Counted from the stretch's first letter, positions 47,381 to 63,054 are shown. The stretch: DNA of 64,000 nt from a virus (IMGVR_UViG_3300025141_012845:1-64000); one strand, 5' to 3'. Made by a program: numbers and translations. The notes: generated by a model from the letters alone, not told the origin.

Positions 47381-47675
47381 CTATTTCATCCTCTAGTTCT
47401 AATTCTTTTGTTAAGTCAAGAATATTCTCGTATTGATCAAACTCCACCAAAAGCTCTTTTGAATGTCTAATAAGATTCTGTAAAGTCTCGTCGCCATAAA
47501 ATGTTTCGAGAGAGTGAACTCCTTCAAGATGAGATGAAAATTCATCAATATCTTCAAAAAGATCTCCCATAGTTTCCGAGACAAACAACAGGTCCCGAAT
47601 TATCTTTCTCAAATACCACAACAACAGTATATTCAGAGATATTGATACAACAGATATGATTATTATCGTAATCAT
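47361..47675 (-). CDS. Single-TM membrane protein (104 aa)
   Basis: N-terminal hydrophobic helix; acidic helical tail with YGDETL. Confidence 0.7.
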   Translation of the reverse strand: MITIIIISVVSISLNILLLWYLRKIIRDLLFVSETMGDLFEDIDEFSSHLEGVHSLETFYGDETLQNLIRHSKELLVEFDQYENILDLTKELELEDEIDDETED

Positions 47676-47929
47676 GTTTTATGTTCTTCCTTCATACGTT
47701 GTTTTTCTTTTTCGACTTCTTTTTTTGTAGATTTAATATATTCTTTAACAATAGATCCAGGCTTTTGTTTATTTTGCTTGGAGTCCGTTTTTGTTGTAAA
47801 TGTAGAGTACACCTTTTTAAGGCATCCCGTATTATTACAAAATTTGCATCTCTCTAAACGCTCGTTTATAGAATGCACTGCTGAAAATTCCTTTTCACAG
47901 TTCTTACAGTGATATTGATATATCGGCAT
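47672..47929 (-). CDS. FmdB-family zinc-ribbon protein
   Basis: MPIYQYHCKNC...CKFC. Confidence 0.85.
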   Translation of the reverse strand: MPIYQYHCKNCEKEFSAVHSINERLERCKFCNNTGCLKKVYSTFTTKTDSKQNKQKPGSIVKEYIKSTKKEVEKEKQRMKEEHKT

Positions 47930-48192
47930 CAGTCAGTTTCTAATGCCTGTTCTAAAACATCGGCGTCGTCGTGATCCAGTTTAACTGTTGGTGGATTTAA
48001 AACAACCAAATCGCCCTGATTGTCTACAAATTTAAAACCTTTCAAAACAGGTACAATATCACTCTGCTCTAAAAGAGATTTTTGCAGTGCCATCATGACG
48101 GCTCCTAAAGCCTGATCAGAAAGGTGCATCTCCTTTAACTGTTCTTTTTTTTCCTCACCAATGTTTAAAACATTAAATTCTTCGTTACTCAT
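47929..48192 (-). CDS. Hypothetical protein (87 aa)
   Basis: SD GGAG; translationally coupled to its neighbours. Confidence 0.75.
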   Translation of the reverse strand: MSNEEFNVLNIGEEKKEQLKEMHLSDQALGAVMMALQKSLLEQSDIVPVLKGFKFVDNQGDLVVLNPPTVKLDHDDADVLEQALETD

Positions 48193-48193
48193 T

Positions 48194-48565
48194 TTAATCT
48201 CCTTTTATAACTCTATAAGAATCGCTATCGTAATGCTCCGTAGAAAACTCAAACAATTCTGAATCTTCCAATGCGAGCATCTGATGTCGTAGACCCGGAT
48301 AGATATAAAAATTCTGCCCAGGTTCTAAAATAATTTCTTCTGCCAAATCTATGTCATCATAGTTTGAATACTTTACCAAAAGTTTACCAGACTGTAGATA
48401 GAACACTTCGTCCTTTATCTTATGATGATGCCAAGAGCATTTCTTGCCCTTTTCAAAGAACAAGAGTTTGCCGCAATATTCTTCCTTGTTGACAATCCAT
48501 AATTCATGCCCCCACCCTTTTTTAACAAATTTCATTTCCGGTGTCTTATTTGCTGAAGAAGTCAT
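48194..48565 (-). CDS. Cupin, sugar-phosphate isomerase-like (mannose-6-P isomerase / D-lyxose isomerase type)
   Basis: VKKGWGHE, CSWHHH..KDEVFY, HQM, EFST; the start may instead be ATG 48535. Confidence 0.8.
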   Translation of the reverse strand: MTSSANKTPEMKFVKKGWGHELWIVNKEEYCGKLLFFEKGKKCSWHHHKIKDEVFYLQSGKLLVKYSNYDDIDLAEEIILEPGQNFYIYPGLRHQMLALEDSELFEFSTEHYDSDSYRVIKGD

Positions 48566-48875
48566 CGGCGTTAACCCCCTTATCGTCTATAAAATAGTCT
48601 GATTCTACTTTGCCAAGATGTAGTTCATGAAACTTAACGCCCCATTCTTTTAACTGATTATATGTAAGTGTATAGAACAATGCATACGCAGCTTCTCTAT
48701 TGTTGTTGGTTCGGCCCATTCCTCTAGCAGTTAAAAATTTAATATGGTGTCCTTGTTCATATAGTTTATTGACCTCATCAATCCTATCTCGAATCGGTTC
48801 GGAGCCGGTATAATCATCACTTGACGATTCTCCAGATGTACAAATCGTACCATCTATATCAAACACATATATCAC
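48546..48875 (-). CDS. Minimal HAD phosphatase (capsule-biosynthesis phosphatase type)
   Basis: FDIDGT, TARG, K, IDDK. Confidence 0.85.
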   Translation of the reverse strand: MIYVFDIDGTICTSGESSSDDYTGSEPIRDRIDEVNKLYEQGHHIKFLTARGMGRTNNNREAAYALFYTLTYNQLKEWGVKFHELHLGKVESDYFIDDKGVNADDFFSK

Positions 48876-49264
48876 TTGTTATTCTCCAATATCTTTGTAG
48901 TTGAATACTCATCTATTCTATCAAAAAAAAGAACTTCTCCAGCATGTTCGGACCCAACAACCTTCTTGCCTCTCCAGTCGGAACCTACAATCATTATATC
49001 AGGAAAGTTATCTTTTATTAAGTTTTCTAATTGTTCTGCTGAATTAAACACTAAAACTTCGTCAACATATTTAATAGACTCTAAAATAAACTTTCTGTCT
49101 TCAGATCTATTAAACGGTCTTGATTCTCCCTTATCTTTTTTTACCTTACTATCGGAGTCGATCCCTATAACTAGTCTATCTCCCAATGATTTTGCATACT
49201 TAAATAATTCAATGTGTCCTCTATGTAAGATGTCAAAACATCCATTTGTCCAAATCGTTTTCAT
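48872..49264 (-). CDS. Heptose-1-phosphate nucleotidyltransferase-like (RfaE/HldE domain II)
   Basis: TNGCFDILHRGH, DSDSKV..KG..RP, GSDW, YSTT. Confidence 0.88.
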   Translation of the reverse strand: MKTIWTNGCFDILHRGHIELFKYAKSLGDRLVIGIDSDSKVKKDKGESRPFNRSEDRKFILESIKYVDEVLVFNSAEQLENLIKDNFPDIMIVGSDWRGKKVVGSEHAGEVLFFDRIDEYSTTKILENNK

Positions 49265-49992
49265 GTTGTACCAACTCCTCTTTTCTGAACAACAACACTA
49301 GCACACTGATTTGCGAACTCAATTGATTTTTCTATATCTCCAGTTTCAGTATATTTCACAGACAATGCTGAAACAAAGGTGTCCCCTGCTCCCGATGTGT
49401 CTTTAACCTCAACTTCTGAAACTGGGTATAGAACCTCATTGTACCGACAGCCCTTTGGACCCAAAGTTACAATTAGTTTTTTTATCATCTCCTCGCTGAG
49501 ACTGTCTTTTGTTCTTCTATATTCCTCTTCGTTTATCTTTATAAACCTTGCCTTTTCGCACCATGCGCCCAATCTTTTCTTGGTATCGAGAAACACTACA
49601 TCATGCTTACTTGTCACATACTCTATATCATCCTCAGATAAGAACCCCTTATTATAATCAGATATTACAACAGAATCGTACTTGCTAAACTTTATTAATT
49701 TAAGTTTTGAGCGCCCATACGATTCGTCTCCCTGATCAAGCCTCATAAACATGTGGTTTGACCTTAAATCGATAAATCTTGTTTTAGTTATATTCTGCCA
49801 ATTACTGTTTGTGTGTATGTTAGCATCAGCACCAAGCGCTTGAATGTTTCTTTGAACATTCATTGCCATTCCTGGATTCTCAACTGTACGAACTGGATTG
49901 AAAACAGGGACTGGTGCTTCTGGACAGAGCCTGGTGCAGCGACCATAATTAAACACGTCTTTACAACTTTCCCCTATTACAAGAATTTTCAT
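49261..49992 (-). CDS. Heptose-7-phosphate kinase-like, PfkB family (RfaE/HldE domain I)
   Basis: RLCPEAPVPV, ITKTR, SDYNKG, DTSGAGDTF. Confidence 0.88.
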   Translation of the reverse strand: MKILVIGESCKDVFNYGRCTRLCPEAPVPVFNPVRTVENPGMAMNVQRNIQALGADANIHTNSNWQNITKTRFIDLRSNHMFMRLDQGDESYGRSKLKLIKFSKYDSVVISDYNKGFLSEDDIEYVTSKHDVVFLDTKKRLGAWCEKARFIKINEEEYRRTKDSLSEEMIKKLIVTLGPKGCRYNEVLYPVSEVEVKDTSGAGDTFVSALSVKYTETGDIEKSIEFANQCASVVVQKRGVGTT

Positions 49993-49998
49993 TGCTGT

Positions 49999-51156
49999 TT
50001 AGCCTCTAACAATCTGGCAAATGTGCTCAATCTCACTCTCTGTTAGTTCTGGATAGTTTGGAAGGAAGAACCCGTTTCTATGGATTCTATTGCTAACTTC
50101 GTCTTCAAACTTGCCATATTCTTCGTACCAAAATGGATGTTGACCCAAATTACCTGCACTGAAGATTCTGGTTTCGACTCCGTTATCTACCAGCCTTGAT
50201 ACAATATCTTTTCGATGCTCTCCGCTTTCTGCTAGAGCCCCAAATGATATGGAAACAGGCTTGTGATCATACCAGTTCTGGTATTGGACATATCCTTCTA
50301 GATTCTTTGCATACGCAACGTGGTTCTCATATCTACGTGTTGCTGCCCAATTTGCTTTGGCTACCTGTCTGATTCCTATAAATGACTGCAGATCTGTTGC
50401 TCTTAGATTCAAGCCTGTAGTAAAGAATGTAAACGGCTTATGAAAATCATCTACTTCATATTTGTTCATAAGTCGATTATACTCGCTTTCTTCCAAATCC
50501 TTTCCCCAGCCATGGCTTCGCAACATCATGAGCATTTGATAAATTTCAAAGTCGTCCGTATTAACCATTCCCCCTTCAATGGTGGATAATTGGTGTCCAA
50601 AATAAAAAGAAAATGAAGACATATTACCAACTGTACCAACTTTTGCACCATCAGAATACTCGGCTCCCAATGCTGCACATCCATCCTCTAAGAGATAAAA
50701 GCCATACTTTTCTTGAAGCTCAAGCATTCGTTCTCTATAATGTGGCACGCCTAAAACCTGAACAAAGATTACTGCTGCAGGATTCTCCTTTTCACAAACT
50801 CTTTCTAGTTGATCTAAATCCATGCCGAATGTTTCTTTATCTGCTCCGACCATTATTGGTTGAAGTCCAAATTGCATTACTGGAGCAACAGTTGTTACCC
50901 ACCCAACCGATGGCACAACAACCTTATCATTCTTAAGTTTGCCAGCCTTTAACGCTGCGTAAACCATTAGGAGATTGGCGGAAGATCCAGAGTTACAGAA
51001 AACTGAATACTTTGTTCCGATGTAGTCTGCCCATTTTCTCTCAAACTGTTCCGTTAAGTTTCCTTTCGTCAATCTCGGATAACTTTTAAGCCAATTACAA
51101 AGGGCATCTATGTCATCTTCATTAATAGTTTCTTTCGCTAGTGGGTATTTTATCAT
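49999..51156 (-). CDS. PLP-dependent DegT/DnrJ-family enzyme, ColD-type NDP-4-keto-6-deoxyhexose 3-dehydratase
   Basis: NSGSSANLL, EDGC, RSHGW; SFSFYFGHQLSTIEGG has His at the Schiff-base Lys position. Confidence 0.8.
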   Translation of the reverse strand: MIKYPLAKETINEDDIDALCNWLKSYPRLTKGNLTEQFERKWADYIGTKYSVFCNSGSSANLLMVYAALKAGKLKNDKVVVPSVGWVTTVAPVMQFGLQPIMVGADKETFGMDLDQLERVCEKENPAAVIFVQVLGVPHYRERMLELQEKYGFYLLEDGCAALGAEYSDGAKVGTVGNMSSFSFYFGHQLSTIEGGMVNTDDFEIYQMLMMLRSHGWGKDLEESEYNRLMNKYEVDDFHKPFTFFTTGLNLRATDLQSFIGIRQVAKANWAATRRYENHVAYAKNLEGYVQYQNWYDHKPVSISFGALAESGEHRKDIVSRLVDNGVETRIFSAGNLGQHPFWYEEYGKFEDEVSNRIHRNGFFLPNYPELTESEIEHICQIVRG

Positions 51157-51179
51157 TTTATTTTTCCATTGGTTTAGTT

Positions 51180-52130
51180 TTATAGATTCTCAACAATCTT
51201 AATCGGTGCTCTTTCATAAAATTTCATGTTTTCTAGTTTTGGATTTGAATATCTAATCATTGATTCCTCTAGTGTTTCCTCTATAAGAAGAAACAATGAC
51301 TTTCCCAATTCGCGATACACTTCCTTGTCCAAATATTCATAACGATAGTTTTCTAAATGTTTCTTTTCTCTCTTTGAGGCATCATGGAAAAGTGATTTTT
51401 CATTATCCACTATGATTCCAAAGTCAATAGAAACTCTCACTCCTCCATCGTTTAAAACAGTTCTGTGTACACAAGCTTGATCGAACACACTAAGATACCC
51501 CATTCTAGCATATCCTATGAGTTTTTTATCCTTAAATTTTTTTAATCCGTCATCATAGTTCTTTAATGGCAAAAAGAAGTCATCGGTCAAACCTTGTGGC
51601 TCAAAAAATTCCACCGTTGTTGTGGGGTCTCCTGTCAGTGGAACTGCGATTATAGCGTCTCCAACATGAGAGGCCCATGCATCAGAATGTAGTTTAGTGG
51701 TAGCAAGAGGGCGATTATGATCTACGCTGTTCTTTGCTCCGGAAACCACCCTTATTGTGCAAGGTTGCAACGCAAGACAACTATCTAAAATTCCTGATTG
51801 TTGGAGTGCTTCAACAACGCTTTTTTGTAAAGCATTGTATTCTACAATATTGTCCCTTTTCGGGTGAAAAGCCCCATTTTTTGTCCTATTAGGCAAATTC
51901 AATATTTCTTCTTTATACCTGTCTAAAAAGTCATCGCAAAGGACAAATTCTTCCTCATAAAAACAACTCAAAGTTTTAAAAACATAATCAATTACACGAT
52001 CAACCATGTTTTTATATAAACTGGTGGGCAACTTCGTATCAAAGTATATTCCATAGTCCCTATCAGTCTGAGACACAGATCTCATTTCACTATACAGGTC
52101 TGATCTTCCTTTTACGACATCATCTGCCAT
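51180..52130 (-). CDS. Putative 2OG-Fe(II) oxygenase-like protein
   Basis: HxD (LHSDAW) ... H (CVHRT) ... RVSIDF pattern. Confidence 0.55.
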   Translation of the reverse strand: MADDVVKGRSDLYSEMRSVSQTDRDYGIYFDTKLPTSLYKNMVDRVIDYVFKTLSCFYEEEFVLCDDFLDRYKEEILNLPNRTKNGAFHPKRDNIVEYNALQKSVVEALQQSGILDSCLALQPCTIRVVSGAKNSVDHNRPLATTKLHSDAWASHVGDAIIAVPLTGDPTTTVEFFEPQGLTDDFFLPLKNYDDGLKKFKDKKLIGYARMGYLSVFDQACVHRTVLNDGGVRVSIDFGIIVDNEKSLFHDASKREKKHLENYRYEYLDKEVYRELGKSLFLLIEETLEESMIRYSNPKLENMKFYERAPIKIVENL

Positions 52131-52659
52131 TTTCGAACACCGTCTCTCTCATTGTCTTACCATTTTCATCTCTTTCTGATAAAGTGGGGTTCATAGTCGG
52201 CCAATGAATGTTTAAATCCGGATCGCTCCACCTTACAGTGATTTGATCATCTGGCCCGCTATACTTTTTAGACCATTTGTAGAAAAATACGCATTTTTCG
52301 GTTAAACAAACGTGGCCGTTCAAACACCCTGGTGGAACTAGAATCATTGTTGGTTTCTTTTCTGTAAGATGAAAAGTCTTGACTGACTTGAATGTTTGTG
52401 AGTCTTTCCTTACATCAACAACTGCTAAAAATATTTCTCCATGCATACAACAAATCAATTTATAAGTATCGTAATCACCATGAAGACCTCTTAACACATT
52501 TTTTCTAGAAACAGTAACTTTATCCTCAACAAACTTCGGAAATATCTCACAATCCTCATAGATCGACCAAATTTCACCTCTTTTATCTAGGAAAGGGTCT
52601 AGTTGTATTTCTATCAAACCATCGATGTCATGACTTTTAAGGTCTTTTACATATTTCAT
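52120..52659 (-). CDS. rmlC: dTDP-4-dehydrorhamnose 3,5-epimerase family
   Basis: DKRG, SRKNVLRGLH, VDVRKDS, VPPGCLNGH, WSDPDLNIHWP, LSERD; start set at ATG 52659 (ATGA overlap). Confidence 0.88.
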   Translation of the reverse strand: MKYVKDLKSHDIDGLIEIQLDPFLDKRGEIWSIYEDCEIFPKFVEDKVTVSRKNVLRGLHGDYDTYKLICCMHGEIFLAVVDVRKDSQTFKSVKTFHLTEKKPTMILVPPGCLNGHVCLTEKCVFFYKWSKKYSGPDDQITVRWSDPDLNIHWPTMNPTLSERDENGKTMRETVFENGR

Positions 52660-53612
52660 GGAATAAATTTGCACCGCATTTCGTCGTAATCTAACTCTTC
52701 CTTTGATAAGAAGAGGTATTTGTTGACTACACTTGTCAATCTATCTGGATCTTTAATGTACCCATCTTCATCATATGCCTCTGGATTGTGCTGCATAATG
52801 TTGTTACATTCCTCGTAGCCTAATCCGGCTTCATAAGCCTCCTTGTCATTTACAAACTCCGTCGCATCCCTATCATATAGAAGATTGTTCCACATGTTTG
52901 AGTGCTTTTCAGAGACGAAAGAGGCACACGCTGATGCACCGTCAAGGCTATGCAAATGTCTAACCTGTAGATCTTTCATTATCACCCATTTTTGTTTAAC
53001 GGAAGCAGCCACATAATTAAAGGTCGATTCACTACAAAATGCCGCAAATATATCAGGATGTATTTTGTTATATTTTTTATAGATCTCGTTACTAAAAAGG
53101 TGTACATGTTGATTTATTGATTTTCCAATTGGTACTACATAATCCTCATCTTTTACTTGAATTTCTGGAGTTTGATAAACAAACTTATCAGGATCAAGAA
53201 CGTGTAATGCTTCGTCCGTGTCTGTTTGAACTGCCACAATGCCATATGGACCTGACTTGAAACACTCGTATACAGAGCTTATCACATTAGTCTGATCCTC
53301 AAAACTGCACCCTGAATCAACATATAGATACCCTTCAAACTCTCCAAAATGCTTAACGCTTTCCTGTATTGCTTTGTTAAACGTGATGTTTACGGTATGT
53401 GGATCTGTGTGATAGCAGTATGAAATCTTATCTTTAAAAGTAGAATATACCTCTTTAAAACACTCTGGGCTGTTCAAACAGGAGGAGAATACGACTCTGT
53501 AGCCTTCAAAGTCTTGATTTAACAAACTGTTTATGGATTCTATGTACCAATCCGTATTGTCTCTCTTTATCCCACATGTATTATATACTACTAACATTTT
53601 TCTGTTTTCCAA
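52656..53612 (-). CDS. Putative GT-A-fold glycosyltransferase
   Basis: SINSLLNQ, TFNKAI and YLYVDSG resemble GT2 N-terminal elements; cluster context. Confidence 0.5.
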   Translation of the reverse strand: MENRKMLVVYNTCGIKRDNTDWYIESINSLLNQDFEGYRVVFSSCLNSPECFKEVYSTFKDKISYCYHTDPHTVNITFNKAIQESVKHFGEFEGYLYVDSGCSFEDQTNVISSVYECFKSGPYGIVAVQTDTDEALHVLDPDKFVYQTPEIQVKDEDYVVPIGKSINQHVHLFSNEIYKKYNKIHPDIFAAFCSESTFNYVAASVKQKWVIMKDLQVRHLHSLDGASACASFVSEKHSNMWNNLLYDRDATEFVNDKEAYEAGLGYEECNNIMQHNPEAYDEDGYIKDPDRLTSVVNKYLFLSKEELDYDEMRCKFIP

Positions 53613-53613
53613 T

Positions 53614-54126
53614 TTATTCTCCTATGTTTAGAGATAAGATTATCTCTTTTATTATTTTTGCTTGGATTAACTCACCTTTCAATCTGAAAGATTTTATTAT
53701 ACCATTATAGCTTACTTTGTCGATAATTTTAATAGCCGCATCATTAATTGTCATTAATTCCATTTCTCCGTAAGCCTCTACAGAATCTTCTTTAAATTTT
53801 TGAAGGATGCCCTTGCCTATTAGAGTTGGCAGTCTCACAACTACTCCCTTCTCGCAATGGCTAAGAAGGTATGCCTCAGCGATTTGTTTACAGTAATTGT
53901 ACCAGTTTTCTTTTTCAGAATATGTTGAAACAAAGATTATTTTTTTCTCTGCGTGTTCATCAACAAACTCAGCAAACTTCTCACACTCTATCTGTTGTGT
54001 TCTCTGATCCTTATCGTCAATATTCCAAGTGTGGTATATATAAGTTTCCTCCAAAGGGTCTACACTTTCTAATAAATCTCTAAGTGCGTTTCCTAACTGG
54101 CCTCGCCCGTTTATCAGTTTAAGCAC
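53614..54126 (-). CDS. Short SDR / RmlD-like NAD(P)-dependent reductase or epimerase (170 aa)
   Basis: NGRGQLG, FVST, YNYCK (YxxxK), VRLP. Confidence 0.65.
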   Translation of the reverse strand: MLKLINGRGQLGNALRDLLESVDPLEETYIYHTWNIDDKDQRTQQIECEKFAEFVDEHAEKKIIFVSTYSEKENWYNYCKQIAEAYLLSHCEKGVVVRLPTLIGKGILQKFKEDSVEAYGEMELMTINDAAIKIIDKVSYNGIIKSFRLKGELIQAKIIKEIILSLNIGE

Positions 54127-55346
54127 TAGACGAACTCCGGATGCTTTAATAACCTCTTTATATTTTGTTGTTGACCCAGAAGTTCTTTTTTAAAATCATC
54201 CACATTGTCCTTTGAACTTTCATACTGATTGTATAACTCCCAGCACATTTTATTGCTTTCGTGTGGTTTGCACAACTCTGTACATTTTGAAAACTTCTCA
54301 ACATTATCAATAACATTCATAACCGACCTTCTCTTCTCGACATTATTCCAAATATCTTTAAAAGAACTCTCCTTGAGGTCTCCGTAACTATATTGTTTAT
54401 AACCTCTATGATTGGTACAGACATAGACATGCCCGTCGGCACCAATACACGGTTGTATTTGAGACCCTAAACACTTCTTATAACTCCTGCCATAAAGGGC
54501 TGGATCATTTTCCAAATCCTGTAGTTTATACCCGTTAATCTGATACTTATCTCCAAGAATATTCTTTGCCTCAGCAAGCAGTGGTTCAACTTTATCGTTC
54601 CAGAACTTAATTTTGCGCTGAACGCCTGATTCTCGTTCTCTATTTACAATTTCTGGCTTGTATTGACAATAATCTACATCAAACTTAGAAAAGAACTTTG
54701 CAAAGTCAACTATCTCATGATATGTGTCAGGAGTTATAACAAAACCAACTCCAATGTTTATTTTCTTATCTTTTTGGTTATTTACTTCTACTAGTTTGGT
54801 CAAGTTTAAGGCCATTTTATCCCATGTTTGCCCCTTCTTAGCCCGTCTAACGTTGTTGTACGTTTCCGGCGTTCCTGCGTCCACTGAGAACCTTACCCAC
54901 GTCATATTATCAACTAATGTATCGAACAAGTCCCATTTGTCAAGAAGAGTCCCGTTTGTGAACATTCCCATTTTAATTGAGTTCTCTCCCAAATACTGAA
55001 TTGCCTCTTTTAAATGTGGATTCAATGTTGGTTCTCCGCCGCCTGTCCAATTTACGGCACGAACATCCATATCAACAAAATCCCTGCAAACACTCATAAG
55101 CATGTCCTTATTCATGATTGAACGGTCAAAGGTCTCAAGGTTCTTTGATTCTGGTAAGTGAATATAAGACGATATGCAGAAATAGCACCCGTGATTACAT
55201 GCATTACTTGGATCAATCTCAACCAAGACAGGAGGAGATGTCCCCTTTTCAAAAAATTCAATCACCCTATCTGCATTAGCAACAACTTTTGCTTGAGGGT
55301 TGAAAATGTTGGTTCCTTTTGAAAGTATTTTATCGAGACTCTTCAT
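54126..55346 (-). CDS. Radical SAM protein with a C-terminal SPASM/Twitch domain
   Basis: CNHGCYFC, TGGGEP, TNG, RFSVDA, C..IGADGHVYVC..GDL..FKDIW..C. Confidence 0.9.
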   Translation of the reverse strand: MKSLDKILSKGTNIFNPQAKVVANADRVIEFFEKGTSPPVLVEIDPSNACNHGCYFCISSYIHLPESKNLETFDRSIMNKDMLMSVCRDFVDMDVRAVNWTGGGEPTLNPHLKEAIQYLGENSIKMGMFTNGTLLDKWDLFDTLVDNMTWVRFSVDAGTPETYNNVRRAKKGQTWDKMALNLTKLVEVNNQKDKKINIGVGFVITPDTYHEIVDFAKFFSKFDVDYCQYKPEIVNRERESGVQRKIKFWNDKVEPLLAEAKNILGDKYQINGYKLQDLENDPALYGRSYKKCLGSQIQPCIGADGHVYVCTNHRGYKQYSYGDLKESSFKDIWNNVEKRRSVMNVIDNVEKFSKCTELCKPHESNKMCWELYNQYESSKDNVDDFKKELLGQQQNIKRLLKHPEFV

Positions 55347-56262
55347 TTTTCTTCCCTAACCACTCTAAAAAGAATTTAGTGGGATCTTCAAAATATACAC
55401 GAATAACATCATCAAAGTATTTTTTTGCAGCGCTCGCCCTATTCTCTAATTCTTCCAAAGGTAAGTTATAGACTTCCTTAAGCTTCTCTGCGACCTTGTC
55501 AGGTGTCATTTCAATATCACAAATCCTAAAAACAAAACTAGTATCGTAATAATCTTCTCCTACAAGATAATAGTCCAAGTCAGAGATTAGAATAGGGACT
55601 CGATTATAATAACAACTTTCCAAAAGTCTTACACTATCAATGCCTGATCCTCTCGGGCACAGCGATAAGCCATTTGCAAGCATTGTATCAATATAGTCTT
55701 CTTGAACTTTAGATCCTATTTCGGAAGGCCCAGCCCATGTTCTATTTACGTGCATTTCTTTTTCTAATTCCGGAGATGTATGGAGTGCATACACCATGAT
55801 TGCTCTGCATCCATGATTCATATATCCTCTAAACCCGAATTTTTTATTATCAGGAAACTCAAACTCCTCACTTCTGTTATTGACAATATCTAACAATAAG
55901 TGAGAAAAAGTTGGTCTAGCGAATAGTTTTTGTATGTTCGAATAAAGTTTTACTGGCCCCATTGTTGTAATAATAGAATTATGCAGCCATCCTGGAATAG
56001 GCATCCCTCCTTCTCCTTCTACATCACATATGTGCTTGTCTTCATTTCCTTCAAAGTACTTAAAAGTCTTAGAAGTATAGCGATTAAAGTGGTCATTAGG
56101 TATTTGACCCATGTAGAAGTAATCCGCTTCCTCTGGAGAGACTAACTCACAGTAGTCTTCGATACCTTTCTTGCTTAAAGGCACTGTATTGAAATATATC
56201 TCTGTGTCATCATGAACATGTTCACGAGCGTTCGGATAAACATATAGTTTTATTTTATTCAT
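55330..56262 (-). CDS. Exostosin-like (GT47) glycosyltransferase
   Basis: SPEEADYF, GFRG, LSLCPRGSGIDSVRLLESCYYNRVPILISD. Confidence 0.75.
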   Translation of the reverse strand: MNKIKLYVYPNAREHVHDDTEIYFNTVPLSKKGIEDYCELVSPEEADYFYMGQIPNDHFNRYTSKTFKYFEGNEDKHICDVEGEGGMPIPGWLHNSIITTMGPVKLYSNIQKLFARPTFSHLLLDIVNNRSEEFEFPDNKKFGFRGYMNHGCRAIMVYALHTSPELEKEMHVNRTWAGPSEIGSKVQEDYIDTMLANGLSLCPRGSGIDSVRLLESCYYNRVPILISDLDYYLVGEDYYDTSFVFRICDIEMTPDKVAEKLKEVYNLPLEELENRASAAKKYFDDVIRVYFEDPTKFFLEWLGKKNEESR

Positions 56263-56275
56263 GTGTGTTCCTCTT

Positions 56276-57118
56276 TTAAAAATTTATTTTTGGTTCTTTG
56301 TCCGGAAAAGACATTTTGTTTAGATTAACATCTTTTACTCTTTTCTTTAAGTCCTCGTAAGATATATCGTATTCTAAATCAAGATTGTTGGCGCATGCTG
56401 ATAAAAGAGCGCAGTAAACTTTATAATCGTAATCTTCATTGCTTAATTCACCCTCAAAAGGTGGGAAGGCTGTTATGCCGCAGTTTGTAAGTTCTTTGAT
56501 TTTTTCACACCCTTTTAGCCAAAAATAAAACGCCATATAGTGATCGATATATCTTGCCTTAAAGACAGAAGGGTATATAACACCACCTAATTTATCTTCT
56601 ATAAAATTGCGAGTTATAACTGGGAATCTCGCGCAAGCAACCTTAGTTATATCACTAAATCTAGAATAAAAATTAGTATAATTCTTATCTGGTTGAAAGT
56701 TTAGCGGAATATTAAACAATTTAGTTGCTAAAGATTCCACCCTTTGCCCGTCCTCCGTATATTGCTCTGGAATCATCAAGATAAAATCTCTTTCCTGTAC
56801 AATCATACGCAGAATGACATCATACTTAAATTGTTCCCCGTAAAGCATCCCGTCGGTGGCCGGATGAACAATTCTCCCCTTTGACATTTTATACATCTTG
56901 TTATAGCCAGCAACACTACCTACAGTCTCTTCTTCTTTAATCCACGTCACGCCTTCAATTTCAGGATCAAGTGGCGAATATACTAAAATCTCATAGGTAA
57001 ACTTTTTAGGGCCGCTATCCCATTTAATCTCCTGAATGGACTTTACTACTCTGTGGCAGAACTTTTCGTTTGGCCTTCTGTCATTTAAGGTAGGTAGTAA
57101 GAATGATACATCAACCAT
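56276..57118 (-). CDS. Divergent GT2-like glycosyltransferase
   Basis: VSFLLPT, YEILV, GYNKMYKMSKG, TDG, YID. Confidence 0.55.
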   Translation of the reverse strand: MVDVSFLLPTLNDRRPNEKFCHRVVKSIQEIKWDSGPKKFTYEILVYSPLDPEIEGVTWIKEEETVGSVAGYNKMYKMSKGRIVHPATDGMLYGEQFKYDVILRMIVQERDFILMIPEQYTEDGQRVESLATKLFNIPLNFQPDKNYTNFYSRFSDITKVACARFPVITRNFIEDKLGGVIYPSVFKARYIDHYMAFYFWLKGCEKIKELTNCGITAFPPFEGELSNEDYDYKVYCALLSACANNLDLEYDISYEDLKKRVKDVNLNKMSFPDKEPKINF

Positions 57119-58949
57119 CGTCTTTGTTAAAAATGCTAGGCATTGGAGGATTTTTTGAGATCTCTAATGCCTCTACCTCCATATTAGAATAGAATTCCTC
57201 TCTTGGCAAGTAGGGATACATATCTTCAATAGGAGTGCTCCATCCAACAATTTTAGGCTCATAAACGTGATATTCGTGACAGTTAACATCACAAACTATT
57301 GGGCCATCACTATCTAAAAACTCTCTGACCTGTTTTCTAACAACATCATAGTCTTCACCGCTATTAATAGACATTGTCTTAACCCCATACGCATCTACAA
57401 TCTTTAAGAAGTCCGGTGGGTTATAGCCCTTTGGCCCGCACGCTTCACTTCTACCTTCAAAGTTAACCTCTTGAAATGCTTTCGTAATTCCATAAATATG
57501 GTTATTTAAAACAATGGTCTTAAGATTCACATTATAGTTCAATAATGTCTGCAACTCTTGAATATTCATATTAAATCCGCCATCACCGATGACGCAAACA
57601 ACGTTCTGAGTTTCATCCGCTGCAAAACAAGAACCAAGTCCACCAGCAAAAGAGAATCCCATTGGAGAGTTTCCATTATTGGTAATATATCTTTGGCCTG
57701 TTTTCGTCTCAAATGCATGATTTAAAACAACAATATTGCCTCCACAGTCACCAATTAAGATATCGTTATCCTTCATCTCCTCTGAAAGTATTCTAGCGAA
57801 AGCATAAGGATGCACATATCTTTGAGTGTCATACATCTCTTTAATGACTGGATCATATTTTTCTTTCCATCCATTCACTCTATTGACCCATCCGGAAAAG
57901 TCTGGTAGACTTTGATTTCTTTCTCTGGCTCTATCCAAAAGCATGTTTATAAAAACTTTTGCATCAGAATAAATGCACTCATCAAACGGAAGTTGTTGAA
58001 GCTTCTTCTGGAGTGCTGGTTTGTCAACATCGACCATATACTTTTTAGCGCCTCTTGCAAAAGTCTCCGGTGTTCCTCCGGTGATTCTACCAGAAATTCT
58101 ACTACCGATTGCTAAAAGAAGGTCAGAGTTTTGAATTCCAAAATTACGGCCTGCTCCACCATATGTTCCAATTCTGCCACCATAGTATTCAAAGTCAGAA
58201 CAAATAATATCTAATGCATTCCAAGTTGGAAAACACGGAACTTTTAATTCTCTAGCCAGTTCCAGTATCTCTTTCTCTGCTCCCGCAAGTCGAACTCCTT
58301 GTCCGATCATCAAGCATGGACGCTCGCTACCAGCCAAATCATCAAGATATTTGTCAATTTGCTCGTTAATCTTTTCAGTATCAAAAGAGGTTTTTAACCC
58401 ACAATCGTATCCTAACAACCCTTCTGGTTCAATCTCTGCTTTAGCAACATCAATTGGAATATCAAGAAGTACAGGTCCGGGTCTACCGGTTGTCGCAACA
58501 TGAATAGCCTTTTCTAGTTCATAACGAATACTATCTGGATCATCAACAAGTTTAGCATATTTTGTTATTGGCTCCACAATACTGACAATATCAGTTTCCT
58601 GAAATCCAATCTGTCTAATAGACTTATCTGGCCTCATATATTGTGTTTTGATTTGTCCGGTAATAAAGACACAAGGAACTGAGTCATAAAAACAGTTTCC
58701 AATCGGCGTAACAAAGTTCATCCCGCCTGGTCCACTAGTTGCTATCGCAACGCCAAACTTCCCGGAAATCTTAGCATATCCTTCTGCGGCAAAACCTCCG
58801 GCTTGTTCATGCATAACCGCTACATACTTTGTTTTATCTGTGCGAGTAAACGCATCTATCAAATGTCCATTTGCTGCGCCATATACAACAAAAACATCTT
58901 TAATCCCTTGATCTCCGATATAATCTATTACGTAGTCTGCTAAATTCAT
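57111..58949 (-). CDS. ThDP-dependent acetolactate-synthase-like enzyme (YerE-type carboligase candidate)
   Basis: HEQAGGFAAEGY, TSGPG, GRPGPVLLDIP, GDGG...LNN ThDP-binding motif. Confidence 0.9.
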   Translation of the reverse strand: MNLADYVIDYIGDQGIKDVFVVYGAANGHLIDAFTRTDKTKYVAVMHEQAGGFAAEGYAKISGKFGVAIATSGPGGMNFVTPIGNCFYDSVPCVFITGQIKTQYMRPDKSIRQIGFQETDIVSIVEPITKYAKLVDDPDSIRYELEKAIHVATTGRPGPVLLDIPIDVAKAEIEPEGLLGYDCGLKTSFDTEKINEQIDKYLDDLAGSERPCLMIGQGVRLAGAEKEILELARELKVPCFPTWNALDIICSDFEYYGGRIGTYGGAGRNFGIQNSDLLLAIGSRISGRITGGTPETFARGAKKYMVDVDKPALQKKLQQLPFDECIYSDAKVFINMLLDRARERNQSLPDFSGWVNRVNGWKEKYDPVIKEMYDTQRYVHPYAFARILSEEMKDNDILIGDCGGNIVVLNHAFETKTGQRYITNNGNSPMGFSFAGGLGSCFAADETQNVVCVIGDGGFNMNIQELQTLLNYNVNLKTIVLNNHIYGITKAFQEVNFEGRSEACGPKGYNPPDFLKIVDAYGVKTMSINSGEDYDVVRKQVREFLDSDGPIVCDVNCHEYHVYEPKIVGWSTPIEDMYPYLPREEFYSNMEVEALEISKNPPMPSIFNKDDG

Positions 58950-58951
58950 TA

Positions 58952-59872
58952 CTAATCCTTACGAGTTACAGTGTTTGGTGTTAGACTATGATTCGTTGGA
59001 AAGCCCTGATCTGTTTCATACTTCCACTTTGAATCGCCTAACAACTTTTCAAGTTCTTCATCTTTGATTTCATAGAAATTTTCCTGTGCTGGAAAAACTC
59101 CAGTTCGGACTTCTTCCGCATATTGTTGCAGGGCCGACTGCATTGCTTTACCTGCTTCACAATATCGCTTTACGAACTTAGATTTAAATTCCCAAAACAG
59201 CCCCATAAGATCGTGGAAGATGACCAATTGTCCATCTACCTTATCTCCTGCTCCAATTCCATAAACAGGGATAGAAAGCTCGTTAGCAATAATACCAGCA
59301 GGTTCTCTTGGCATTGCTTCCAAAAGAAGAAATGAACACCCGGCCTCTTGCAGTTTCAAAGCCTGTTCTAAAATAACTTCTGTTTGCTTTGCTGTCTTGC
59401 CCTGTACTCTGTACCCTCCTAGTTTAGCACGAGTATGTGGTGTCAGGCCTAAGTGGCTCATAACTAAGATCCCGGCATCTGCTATTGATTTAATTCTGTC
59501 AACCATCGCGCCCTCAACCTTAACGCAATCCATTCCTGACCTTACAAATCTACCGGCATTTATAACTGCTTCTTCGTTTGATACTTGATATGACATGTAC
59601 GGCATGTCACCAATAAGAAAAGCGTTGTTTGTTCCTCTAGCGACTGCTTCGCAGTGAGAAATCATATTATCCATTGTGACTGGTATTGTTGTCTTGTGTC
59701 CTAATGTAGTCATGCCTAGCGAATCTCCAACCAAGATACAGTCGACACCTGCGCCATCTGAAATCCTTGATTGAGGATAGTCATAGGCGGTTGTCAACAC
59801 CGTTTTTCTTCCCTCTTCCTTTTGTCTTCTTAATTTTAATACTGTTACCTTATTCTTATCGTTTGCGGCCAT
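58952..59872 (-). CDS. panB: 3-methyl-2-oxobutanoate (ketopantoate) hydroxymethyltransferase
   Basis: TAYDY, ILVGDSLGM, DMPYMSY, VKVEG, HLGLTP, QGK, GIGAG..DGQ, HD. Confidence 0.93.
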   Translation of the reverse strand: MAANDKNKVTVLKLRRQKEEGRKTVLTTAYDYPQSRISDGAGVDCILVGDSLGMTTLGHKTTIPVTMDNMISHCEAVARGTNNAFLIGDMPYMSYQVSNEEAVINAGRFVRSGMDCVKVEGAMVDRIKSIADAGILVMSHLGLTPHTRAKLGGYRVQGKTAKQTEVILEQALKLQEAGCSFLLLEAMPREPAGIIANELSIPVYGIGAGDKVDGQLVIFHDLMGLFWEFKSKFVKRYCEAGKAMQSALQQYAEEVRTGVFPAQENFYEIKDEELEKLLGDSKWKYETDQGFPTNHSLTPNTVTRKD

Positions 59873-61429: not shown

Positions 61430-62353
61430 TCAGTAGTTTGCATACCACGGCTCGTCAAGCATTTCATACACACTTACAAGCTGTTGTATTCCCTGATCTA
61501 AATCATATTGACATTCAAAGCCTTTATTGTAAAACTTCTCACTACTGACAACATAATCTCTAACATCTGGATCTTTCGTAAACTCAGCGCATAAGAGTTC
61601 TAGCGGTGTGTGTTCTGAGATCTTCCTTGCTAGGTCGTATTTGTTCATGTTTAAGGCGTCGTTTCCAACGTTATATGTCTCATTCTTACAATCATCCCAA
61701 TTGTCCAATGCAAATCTATACGCTCTGCAGACATCTTGAATATGCACGTAATTTCTCATAAATTCCTTTTCATATAAAACAAGGACGCGGTCTTTGACTG
61801 CCTTTAAAACAAAATTGTTCACAAGCAAATCAGTCCTCATTCTTGAGGAAGGTCCAAACACTGTTGCAAGTCTAAATGTAACATGATTTTCAATATTTTT
61901 AAATACTTTTTCTGCTTCAACTTTAGTTTCTCCATAAAGAGATACTGGATTTAAAGGAGACTCCTCTGTGCAGACTTCTCCCTTTGAAGTGCCATAGCCA
62001 GAGTTTGTGCAAGGATATATAACAAGTTGATCTTGTGATTTGTTCTCTGCGATAACCCTATTTGCTTTATAATTGATATTCCATGCTGCTTCAGGATCTC
62101 TCTTACACAAAGGAAACCCCACAAGCGCAGCCAATGGGATGATAGCATCAGATTTATTGACAAGTCTTAAAAGTTTGGGAGTTTCTCTAACGTCCCCTTT
62201 TACAAAATTAAAATTTGGATGTCCCGCATATCTCAATAAAGATAAATTATCATACATCAAATTATCATAAACTGTTACTTTGTTATCCTTAACAAGATGA
62301 TCGATAAGTTCACTGCCAATATAGCCTGCGCCACCTGTAATTAATATATTCAT
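61430..62353 (-). CDS. NAD-dependent epimerase/dehydratase (extended SDR)
   Basis: ITGGAGYIG, YGETK, RLATVFG, YVHIQDV. Confidence 0.92.
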   Translation of the reverse strand: MNILITGGAGYIGSELIDHLVKDNKVTVYDNLMYDNLSLLRYAGHPNFNFVKGDVRETPKLLRLVNKSDAIIPLAALVGFPLCKRDPEAAWNINYKANRVIAENKSQDQLVIYPCTNSGYGTSKGEVCTEESPLNPVSLYGETKVEAEKVFKNIENHVTFRLATVFGPSSRMRTDLLVNNFVLKAVKDRVLVLYEKEFMRNYVHIQDVCRAYRFALDNWDDCKNETYNVGNDALNMNKYDLARKISEHTPLELLCAEFTKDPDVRDYVVSSEKFYNKGFECQYDLDQGIQQLVSVYEMLDEPWYANY

Positions 62354-62354
62354 T

Positions 62355-62654
62355 CTACCACTCCAATTTTCCAGTTAAAACATCTTTAAGCATCACCCAG
62401 TCGCACGCTTTTGCCCACAATGGCCTTTTCCATGCTGCTGGCTTGTTCTTTTCAAAATACAGATGACCTGTCCATGCAAACGGATAAACCACAAAGGGCA
62501 CTAATGGCAAAAGAAGCCAAGTTTGACTTAATAATGCATACAACAGCACTGTAACTGTTGCCAATTGCCCAACTACATGCAGTCTTCTGCATATCTTGTT
62601 TTGATGTAAAGTCAAATAATGCTCATAATATTGTTTAAACGTAATGTTATTCAT
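62355..62654 (-). CDS. DUF962 / Mpo1-like membrane protein (99 aa)
   Basis: YL..HQN..CRRLHVVG, YPFAWTGH..FEKNKPA, CDW; start moved to ATG 62654. Confidence 0.8.
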   Translation of the reverse strand: MNNITFKQYYEHYLTLHQNKICRRLHVVGQLATVTVLLYALLSQTWLLLPLVPFVVYPFAWTGHLYFEKNKPAAWKRPLWAKACDWVMLKDVLTGKLEW

Positions 62655-63054
62655 CCCAGCTAATCTCCCAATCTTTGAATTCTGCTGCCAAGCAATCAAT
62701 TTTATAATCTTTTCGTCCTCCAGCAACTTCTTGAATCTTATTCTTTGCAGTGTTGCGAATACCGTTCAATCCGTGTGTTAACTCAAGATCATTACCTTCT
62801 GCAATTCCTTTCCTATAATTGGACTCATTGTGCCATATGTGAAGGTTCATTTGAGATAACACAACAATTGCTCTAATCACTTGTGCATCTATTTTAGCAG
62901 AATTTTCTTTTAATATTAAATTAATATCGTGAACAATGTCAGAAATCTCTTGTACATACTCAGATTTGTGCTCTGATATGAAAACTTCTTTCAATTGTGC
63001 TATCGATAATCTGTCTACAAGTTCGGATAAGGTTGGTAAATATTTTCTTTTCAT
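62647..63054 (-). CDS. Helical protein of the DUF4254/DUF6165 type found in glycosylation clusters
   Basis: ELVDRLSIAQLK, NLHIWHNE..R, N..R..KNKI. Confidence 0.6.
   Translation of the reverse strand: MKRKYLPTLSELVDRLSIAQLKEVFISEHKSEYVQEISDIVHDINLILKENSAKIDAQVIRAIVVLSQMNLHIWHNESNYRKGIAEGNDLELTHGLNGIRNTAKNKIQEVAGGRKDYKIDCLAAEFKDWEISWDE

Follow-up and report, generated by a model that had tools for sequence, protein, structure and literature searches.

A phage gene cluster pairing a PanB-family enzyme with a YerE-like carboligase: a putative route to C4-branched deoxysugars

The panB and carboligase genes of the operon

The 64,000-nucleotide stretch of DNA analysed here (the window) belongs to a single 75.7-kb IMG/VR virus record, IMGVR_UViG_3300025141_012845, with a CheckV completeness of 26%. 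The contig encodes a baseplate wedge protein and a late sigma factor, together with PhoH, a PD-(D/E)XK nuclease, a Clp-type protease and an amidase, and its structural proteins find only distant matches among cultured phages; it is a genome fragment of an uncultured marine T4-like phage. The genes of interest encode a PanB-family protein (the family of ketopantoate hydroxymethyltransferase, KPHMT) and an enzyme dependent on thiamine diphosphate (ThDP), and according to the open reading frame (ORF) calls they share the minus strand and one densely packed operon with all other genes considered here (Table 1). The initial annotation, made from the sequence, had described an intact panB directly upstream of a gene resembling acetolactate synthase (ALS), and both the ORFs and the family searches bear this out, the panB stop codon and the start codon of the ThDP gene being separated by a 2-nt gap. 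The surrounding glycosyltransferases that it had noted are equally evident, i.e., a GT2 and two GT4 genes upstream, and a gene of GT-A fold directly downstream, which overlaps the 3' end of the ThDP gene by 8 nt.

Read by their names, the two genes would be auxiliary metabolic genes, with PanB boosting host pantothenate and coenzyme A (CoA), and the ThDP enzyme boosting the supply of branched-chain amino acids or 2-oxoisovalerate. That automated pipelines would label them in this way had been anticipated, and they do: homologues of the ThDP enzyme (at least 70% identity) occur in more than 120 clusters from Tara, JGI and ENA metagenomes, where the JGI label is acetolactate synthase, and a marine virome study lists 'pantoate transferase' as its most abundant vitamin or cofactor auxiliary gene, interpreted as a boost to pantothenate (vitamin B5) and CoA (PMC8940887).

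The ThDP enzyme possesses all three Pfam domains, TPP_enzyme_N, M and C, as well as the catalytic glutamate (MHEQAGG) and the GDG-X26-NN motif (GDGGF...VLNN). Against the NCBIfam ALS model TIGR00118 it scores 374 bits, where the cut-off is 538, and it is also far below the cut-offs of the other ALS equivalog models. Among PDB entries, a plant ALS is matched with 228 bits and 5AHK, titled 'acetolactate synthase II' and presumably YerE from Pseudomonas protegens, with 281 bits. The best match (327 bits) is 8RPH, i.e., JanthE, a YerE-like ketone-accepting carboligase according to two papers.

For phylogenetic placement, 150 cluster representatives and 80 named bacterial and archaeal loci were sampled, the loci being classed by gene context, and trees were calculated with FastTree (163 rows, SH-like support) and IQ-TREE (83 rows, SH-aLRT support). 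In loci of ALS context the ThDP gene is followed by ORFs sized like IlvH and IlvC, and many cellular ThDP genes adjoin 257-aa, 360-aa and ~440-aa DegT-family genes, i.e., the set for 3,6-dideoxyhexoses linked to cytidine diphosphate (CDP). The yersiniose arrangement is seen in Yersinia vastinensis, with 329-, 257-, 381- and 437-aa genes, a ThDP gene (571 aa) and a 310-aa short-chain dehydrogenase/reductase (SDR). In both trees, a branch with support 100 parts a YerE-like clade from all 13 ALS-context proteins. This clade contains the Y. vastinensis protein, the JanthE-like representative, the phage enzymes and the bacterial proteins of DegT context except one (L089), which is followed by an IlvH-sized ORF and groups with the ALS-context rows. 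Judged by sequence, the ThDP enzyme is thus a member of the YerE-like clade of ketone-accepting carboligases and not an IlvB, which answers the phylogenetic question that the initial annotation had posed and counts against the role in amino-acid supply suggested by the gene's name.

The PanB protein matches Pfam Pantoate_transf PF02548 with 328 bits and the NCBIfam panB model TIGR00222 with 280 bits; the latter score exceeds the equivalog cut-off of 207.55, which taken alone favors a function in pantothenate synthesis, and sampled cellular PanBs above this cut-off score 268-451 bits. The window protein is 38-44% identical to cellular PanBs, and the metal-binding and catalytic residues D45, S46, D84, K112, E114, H136 and E181 (E. 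coli numbering, alignment to 1M3U) are kept, as they are in 43 distinct viral PanBs. Fold family, metal and catalytic residues and equivalog score are thus shared with the PanBs of E. coli (1M3U) and M. tuberculosis (1OY0). In a tree with 62 cellular PanBs, the viral proteins form one separate clade with support 100, and they have in common a conserved C-terminal extension of ~40 aa. A comparison of the 43 distinct viral with 61 distinct cellular sequences revealed replacements that are fixed in the viral proteins at sites elsewhere invariant or almost so, and pocket-lining positions differ from all sampled cellular PanBs: E. coli I212 is leucine in 43 of 43 viral PanBs and valine or isoleucine in the cellular ones, and I200 is replaced by tyrosine. 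In the numbering of the window protein, D170Q and P231S are fixed as well. In E. coli KPHMT, mutation of positions 202, 212 and 214 alters the scope of nucleophiles and electrophiles, and on many 2-oxo acids the enzyme also works as a class II aldolase that needs no folate (PMC7610986). Since the catalytic residues are kept and pocket positions are changed, the viral PanB is predicted to be catalytically competent, with a preferred substrate that may differ from 2-oxoisovalerate.

Models for panC, panE, ilvC, ilvD and ilvH matched nothing on the 75.7-kb contig, nor in the viral records of four relatives, so that the absence of these genes, previously noted for the window, extends to the whole contig. 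Because the contig is a phage fragment, the possibility that they reside elsewhere in the genome was examined in a complete relative: one of the four records, 186 kb long and 100% complete by CheckV, carries the same cluster, and these genes, panC and panE among them, are absent from it as well. As a control, the five models found their genes in 9-14 of 14 genomes (panC in 9; ilvC and ilvD in 14). The phage PanB is orphaned from the pantothenate pathway in these five viral records, and the ThDP enzyme has neither a regulatory subunit (ilvH/N) nor IlvC or IlvD. Unlike PanBs of pantothenate synthesis, the window protein has no panC, panD or panE context, stands beside a YerE-like gene in glycan clusters, and belongs to a separate viral clade with the C-terminal extension and with changes at Q142, I200, I212, L213 and V214.

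Linkage of PanB and carboligase in viruses and cells

The survey of panB adjacency within glycan clusters that the initial annotation had proposed gave a uniform result. In the best 80 of 163 IMG/VR stretches retrieved by profile search, all PanBs are at least 68% identical to the window protein, and a YerE-like ThDP gene is directly adjacent to panB on the same strand in every case (80/80), with PanB preceding the ThDP enzyme in 23 loci and following it in 57. The ThDP partners comprise three YerE-like lineages that are mutually only ~35% identical. A search seeded with the ThDP enzyme yielded 25 IMG/VR loci, 18 of them with PanB, which is directly upstream in all but one and is conserved more highly than any other cluster protein (67-86% identity); the search seeded with PanB yielded 40 IMG/VR loci. 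The adjacency is far beyond chance. Given that the pairing recurs in every viral PanB locus checked, the viral pair probably builds an unusual branched sugar rather than vitamins or amino acids, and the invariant association with the ThDP gene inside glycan clusters argues against the vitamin B5 reading of the phage PanB clade.

No panB was found within 10 kb of the ThDP gene in 80 cellular YerE-like or ALS loci from bacteria and archaea; five of these genomes were searched whole, and each has one ordinary panB, located elsewhere.

One set of phage clusters, here called type B, encodes a 4,6-dehydratase, a 445-aa E1-like DegT-family enzyme, a ThDP enzyme, PanB and an RmlD-like SDR. This is a yersiniose cassette into which panB has been placed, between the genes for the ThDP enzyme and the reductase. 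A cassette of the YerE type, as had been suggested for the window, is accordingly present in full, and with PanB, in type-B phages, but not in the window itself. Examples are loci L110, L127 and L140-L142 (e.g. L127:4081-12549), where the genes follow one another in the order ThDP enzyme, PanB, RmlD-like SDR, E1-like 3-dehydrase and 4,6-dehydratase. Some type-B loci continue with an MptE/Maf-like protein, NeuB and a transferase for cytidine monophosphate (CMP), so that the same viral islands also hold a flagellin-type protein glycosyltransferase and a pathway for nonulosonic acids. A placement of the type-B ThDP lineage as sister of the ErwE-type cluster was considered and dropped; its nearest named relative, at Symbiopectobacterium locus L059, is without an aldolase and acetaldehyde dehydrogenase.

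Among the viral loci that have a relative of the window ThDP enzyme but no PanB, other enzymes adjoin the ThDP gene in L018:2108-8813 (a class I/II aminotransferase and a GHMP kinase) and in L017:208-3261 (a GAPDH-like dehydrogenase); these may be alternative suppliers of the donor.

Matches to PanB and the ThDP enzyme among GenBank phage records were rejected as bacterial contigs filed as phage. The panB of 'Microcystis phage MaAM05' was set aside as uninformative, because it adjoins panC and sufBCDS in a bacterial-looking region.

A putative pathway to a branched sugar and its alternatives

The same operon contains a gene for a DegT-family enzyme. In the PDB this protein matches ColD best (2GMS/3GR9, 180-184 bits; E1, 133 bits), and the histidine-for-lysine substitution reported earlier is confirmed: His188 aligns with ColD His188, the residue changed in the listed H188N and H188K structures, and the same column is histidine in 46 of 46 DegT-family partners in viral loci. 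The SDR has a single outstanding PDB match, 6VO6 (280 bits; the next has 84 bits), which we take to be the C4-dehydrogenase Cj1427. The RmlC-fold epimerase matches the 3- and 3,5-epimerases that act on the 4-keto-heptose of guanosine diphosphate (GDP) in C. jejuni with 120 bits, and RmlC for deoxythymidine diphosphate (dTDP) sugars with 82 bits. For the PfkB kinase, the only notable PDB match is heptose-7-phosphate kinase 4E84 (48 bits over residues 2-59, no stretch being significant alone), and the small nucleotidyltransferase matches TagD (83 bits) and the lipopolysaccharide (LPS)-core protein 3GLV. With the 109-aa ORF and the cupin, the kinase and nucleotidyltransferase make up a putative set of four sugar-activation genes.

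These matches resemble the GDP-heptose enzymes of C. jejuni (Cj1427, Cj1430-type epimerases and the HS:5 C3-dehydratase), which include the best solved matches of the SDR and the epimerase, and the window 3-dehydratase is of the same pyridoxal-phosphate (PLP)-dependent kind as that of HS:5, although ColD is its best solved match. For the kinase and nucleotidyltransferase of the phage, the resemblance is to the HldA/HldC route and not to HddA/HddC. In vitro, Cj1427 and the PLP-dependent C3-dehydratase of C. jejuni HS:5 yield GDP-4-keto-3-deoxy-heptose (PMC10680097), which would be a suitable acceptor ketone for a YerE-type step; in C. jejuni the 4-keto group is reduced and the carbon skeleton stays unbranched, whereas the phage pathway would branch the sugar at this position. 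On account of the SDR, epimerase and kinase matches and of the C. jejuni chemistry, a 3-deoxy-4-keto heptose appears more likely as the acceptor than the 3,6-dideoxy-4-keto hexose that had been proposed initially.

A YerE-like enzyme encoded next to an aldolase that makes a hydroxylated 2-oxo acid is known from the pathways for erwiniose (ErwI/ErwJ/ErwE/ErwF), caryophyllose (MMAR_2331/2332) and gastriose (MygI/MyGE/MygF), and ErwE rejects pyruvate but takes 4-hydroxy-2-oxobutanoate, 4-hydroxy-2-oxopentanoate and 4-hydroxy-2-oxohexanoate (Steitz et al. 2022, PMC9306805). The window can be read in the same terms, because PanB products are 4-hydroxy-2-oxo acids, i.e., the class of donor that ErwE accepts: a predicted maker of a hydroxylated 2-oxo acid is located next to the phage ThDP gene, and the YerE-like enzyme is accompanied by a His-type 3-dehydratase, deoxy-keto-sugar genes and glycosyltransferases. 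Compared with these systems, the donor maker is of the PanB family, dependent on methylene-tetrahydrofolate (methylene-THF), instead of an HpaI/BphI-type pyruvate aldolase, and no pyruvate aldolase of HpaI, BphI or citrate-lyase type was found in the window, where PanB holds that position. Other differences are that the cluster is phage-borne, that its 3-dehydratase is ColD-like rather than E1/E3, that it contains B12-dependent and SPASM radical S-adenosylmethionine (SAM) enzymes, and that the acceptor may be a heptose. The combination of a donor-making enzyme with a YerE-like carboligase is therefore not new as such, the aldolase version having been published; PanB as the donor maker, carried by a phage, is a new variant of it. 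In the literature searched, we found no paper that mentions KPHMT together with branched sugars, and none that links YerE to phages in the branched-sugar sense.

With the yersiniose A system of Yersinia pseudotuberculosis (DdhA-D, YerE and YerF), the proposed pathway shares the addition at C4 of a 3-deoxy-4-keto sugar linked to a nucleoside diphosphate (NDP), and the window ThDP enzyme falls in the same clade as the ddh-context homologue of Y. vastinensis; the two are only ~31-32% identical. Type-B phage cassettes come closer, with their 4,6-dehydratase, E1-like 3-dehydrase, ThDP enzyme and SDR. YerE, unlike the phage system, takes pyruvate and needs no donor-forming enzyme, and the window differs further in lacking an E3 reductase.

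Our preferred reading, to which we assign a probability of about 0.6, is that the window contains part of a phage nucleotide-sugar pathway for a C4-branched deoxysugar, in which a 4-hydroxy-2-oxo acid supplied by PanB is attached at C4 by the carboligase. The first product would be an NDP-sugar, probably a heptose for whose activation the PfkB kinase and the small nucleotidyltransferase would serve. The Cj1427-like SDR would oxidize this sugar at C4, after which the ColD-type His188 enzyme would strip the 3-hydroxyl group to give a 3-deoxy-4-keto NDP-sugar. In parallel, the phage PanB would draw a small 2-oxo acid from host metabolism and extend it with a hydroxymethyl unit supplied by methylene-THF or possibly, acting as an aldolase, with an aldehyde; the resulting 4-hydroxy-2-oxo acid would be ketopantoate or a less substituted analogue. 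The YerE-like enzyme would decarboxylate this acid and add the acyl-anion equivalent to the C4 ketone, leaving C4 with a tertiary alcohol and an acyl branch that bears a hydroxyl group. Tailoring could then fall to the epimerase, to both radical SAM enzymes and perhaps to the SDR, and the glycosyltransferases would transfer the sugar. What we infer is the sequence of reactions, together with the identity of the donor, the acceptor and the target of the glycan, and the core of the proposal, i.e., that the ThDP enzyme is YerE-like and that PanB is functionally coupled to it in a deoxysugar pathway, is well supported by the sequence comparisons.

Several observations weigh against this reading. 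In the viral PanBs, Q142H, L213V and V214I are fixed (43/43), where cellular PanBs have Q, L and V, each in 61 of 61, and these pocket changes mean that the viral substrate may not be 2-oxoisovalerate; in addition, a neopentyl-type donor such as ketopantoate would be sterically demanding for ketone-directed carboligation. The window has no clear 4,6-dehydratase, and no separate YerF-like reductase for the branch was found on the contig, its one SDR being best matched by the presumed C4-dehydrogenase 6VO6. Among the longer relatives of the ThDP enzyme no PanB-ThDP fusion was found, the cluster is absent from cultured phages, with no close PanB or ThDP homologue in GenBank phage records, and the count of paired loci comes from the best-scoring part of the profile search. 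Of the interpretation offered initially, the carboligase clade, the 3-dehydratase and the orphaned, linked PanB are supported; a 3,6-dideoxyhexose as the acceptor and the degree of novelty then assumed are not supported in that form.

The alternative that survives best, although we consider it unlikely, reverses the order of the two steps: the ThDP enzyme would first add an acetyl or other unit, taken from a common 2-oxo acid, to the 4-keto sugar, and PanB would then act on the NDP-sugar instead of a free acid, enolizing and hydroxymethylating either the α-hydroxy-ketone branch or the 4-keto sugar at C3/C5. A larger substrate of this kind could be accommodated by the changed pocket and the C-terminal extension, and in general chemical terms an α-hydroxy ketone can chelate Mg2+ in the manner of a 2-oxo acid, but the viral protein keeps all the residues for binding the metal and the carboxylate of a 2-oxo acid (S46, K112, D45, D84 and E114), and PanB-family enzymes are not known to act on non-acid substrates. 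In 57 of 80 loci panB follows the ThDP gene, which agrees with the reversed order; set against it is the 68-87% identity of PanB across clusters that differ in ThDP lineage, 3-dehydratase type (ColD- or E1-like) and sugar route, which points to a small common substrate and not to an NDP-sugar.

It is improbable that the pair makes a free small molecule, with ketopantoate from PanB being converted by the ThDP enzyme to an aldehyde or acyloin for a non-sugar substituent (e.g. acyl or alkyl groups decorating a glycan) or for a use outside glycans. YerE-like enzymes do catalyze decarboxylation and homocoupling as side reactions (PMC12188165), and the Mpo1-like, DUF7783-like and two radical SAM enzymes of the cluster lack an assigned role; the carboligase, however, belongs to a sugar-associated clade, and every viral cluster pairs its gene with a His-type 3-dehydratase, the source of the 3-deoxy-4-keto acceptor used in YerE-type reactions. 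Least probable of all is a function of both enzymes as auxiliary metabolic genes, for which the PanB score, the JGI name and the virome interpretation speak, and which is contradicted by the clade and sub-threshold ALS scores of the ThDP enzyme, the missing pathway partners, the 80 of 80 pairings in glycan clusters and the altered PanB pocket.

Extending our preferred reading beyond the window, we tentatively suggest, at slightly less than even odds, that the phage-clade PanB (in at least 80 of 163 IMG/VR stretches) has been recruited and re-tuned as a hydroxymethyltransferase or aldolase of 2-oxo acids that supplies YerE-like carboligases, and is not a vitamin gene; the products would form a hitherto unknown family of C4-branched deoxy-hexoses and -heptoses, possibly with a quaternary branch carbon, installed on virions or on the infected cell. 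If this is true, acyl-branched sugars have a new donor route, in which a folate-dependent PanB replaces the pyruvate aldolase as donor maker, and a new sugar structure is therefore predicted. Uncultured marine phages would carry complete pathways for exotic branched sugars, and the counting of 'pantoate transferase' and 'acetolactate synthase' in viromics as cofactor and amino-acid auxiliary genes would be corrected. Both enzymes would be attractive biocatalysts, the PanB for its altered pocket and the YerE-like enzymes because they may take hindered hydroxylated donors.

Further genes of the operon and related loci

Table 1 Genes of the operon; coordinates refer to the window, all genes on the minus strand
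Gene product	Coordinates	Strand	Basis or remark
GT2 glycosyltransferase, 544 aa	63054..64000, on to contig position 64688	-	two GT4 genes beyond
DUF7783-like protein, 135 aa	62647-63054	-	Pfam DUF7783 22 bits, below cut-off
Mpo1-like protein	62355-62726	-	Pfam Mpo1-like 100 bits
SDR, 307 aa; candidate NDP-heptose C4-dehydrogenase or reductase	61430..62353	-	PDB 6VO6 280 bits
B12-binding radical SAM enzyme, 506 aa	59891..61411	-	Pfam B12-binding and Radical_SAM
PanB-family hydroxymethyltransferase, 306 aa	58952..59872	-	Pfam PF02548, NCBIfam panB
YerE-like ThDP-dependent carboligase, 612 aa	57111..58949	-	three TPP domains, JanthE match, tree
GT-A fold glycosyltransferase, 280 aa	56276..57118	-	ESM Atlas model; no Pfam match
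310-aa ORF, possible glycosyltransferase	55330..56262	-	weak RXYLT1_C match, 19.6 bits, below cut-off
Radical SAM/SPASM enzyme, 406 aa	54126..55346	-	Pfam Radical_SAM and SPASM
170-aa ORF	53614..54126	-	no Pfam or PHROG match; few relatives have it
318-aa ORF, GT2-like as a lead only	52656..53612	-	no Pfam match; Atlas feature matches
RmlC-fold 3- or 3,5-epimerase, 184 aa	52120..52674	-	PDB matches
316-aa ORF	51180..52130	-	no Pfam or PHROG match
ColD-type 3-dehydratase dependent on PLP or pyridoxamine phosphate (DegT family), 385 aa, His188 for Lys	49999..51156	-	PDB ColD
PfkB kinase	49261-49992	-	Pfam PfkB
Small nucleotidyltransferase	48872-49264	-	Pfam CTP_transf_like
109-aa ORF	48546-48875	-	
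Cupin	48194-48565	-	Pfam Cupin_2

Among the less clearly assigned genes, the model of the 280-aa protein resembles GT2 families with template-modelling (TM) scores of 0.63-0.71 in the ESM Atlas, the 310-aa ORF is conserved among related loci, and the Atlas feature matches of the 318-aa ORF are viral clusters that are partly Glycos_transf_2. The Mpo1-like and DUF7783-like proteins are conserved cluster members (48-87% identity across relatives), the latter being among the most conserved of all (70-87%). The gene for the B12 radical SAM enzyme adjoins the type-A ThDP gene in nearly all relatives, whether PanB is present or not, and its sequence suggests that the product is probably a C-methyltransferase or a rearranging enzyme.

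YerE-like enzymes occur in natural fusions with varied tailoring partners (P0153, P0141, P0142, P0168, P0244, P0170 and P0193). The partners are a radical SAM/SPASM domain (P0153), GNAT, an HAD phosphatase and an N-terminal region of ~250 aa that contains a cupin, all of them sugar-tailoring partners. Because P0153 joins a radical SAM/SPASM domain to the ThDP enzyme, the 406-aa radical SAM/SPASM protein of the window is suggested to work on the same intermediate as the carboligase.

At Symbiopectobacterium sp. L059:5092-14937, NeuB is immediately preceded by a YerE-like ThDP gene, with neighbors of fatty-acid type (KAS III, FabA-like, SDR and AMP-binding genes); the ThDP donor here may be a 3-deoxy-2-ulosonic acid, which also belongs to the 4-hydroxy-2-oxo acids. 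On a 473-kb contig of a metagenome-assembled Nitrospiraceae genome (L029:8424-13633), the ThDP enzyme is 64% identical to the phage enzyme and B12 radical SAM genes flank it in the absence of PanB, which is likely a sign of recent exchange of glycan clusters between phage and bacterium.

A high-GC proteobacterium (L212/G033:C1:961001-961783) has three PanB-like matches, with the extra copy beside a 2433-aa ORF. This extra PanB joined the viral clade in the FastTree analysis, which we flag as a long-branch join, and ORF calling is noisy in that region.

A second SDR of 283-288 aa is encoded in the relatives L003 and L004, and an RmlD-like SDR stands next to PanB in type-B loci. No remnant of a second SDR was found on the contig at 47676-48193; downstream of the cupin, at 47672-48192, where L003 and L004 have this gene, there are two ORFs of 85 and 87 aa.

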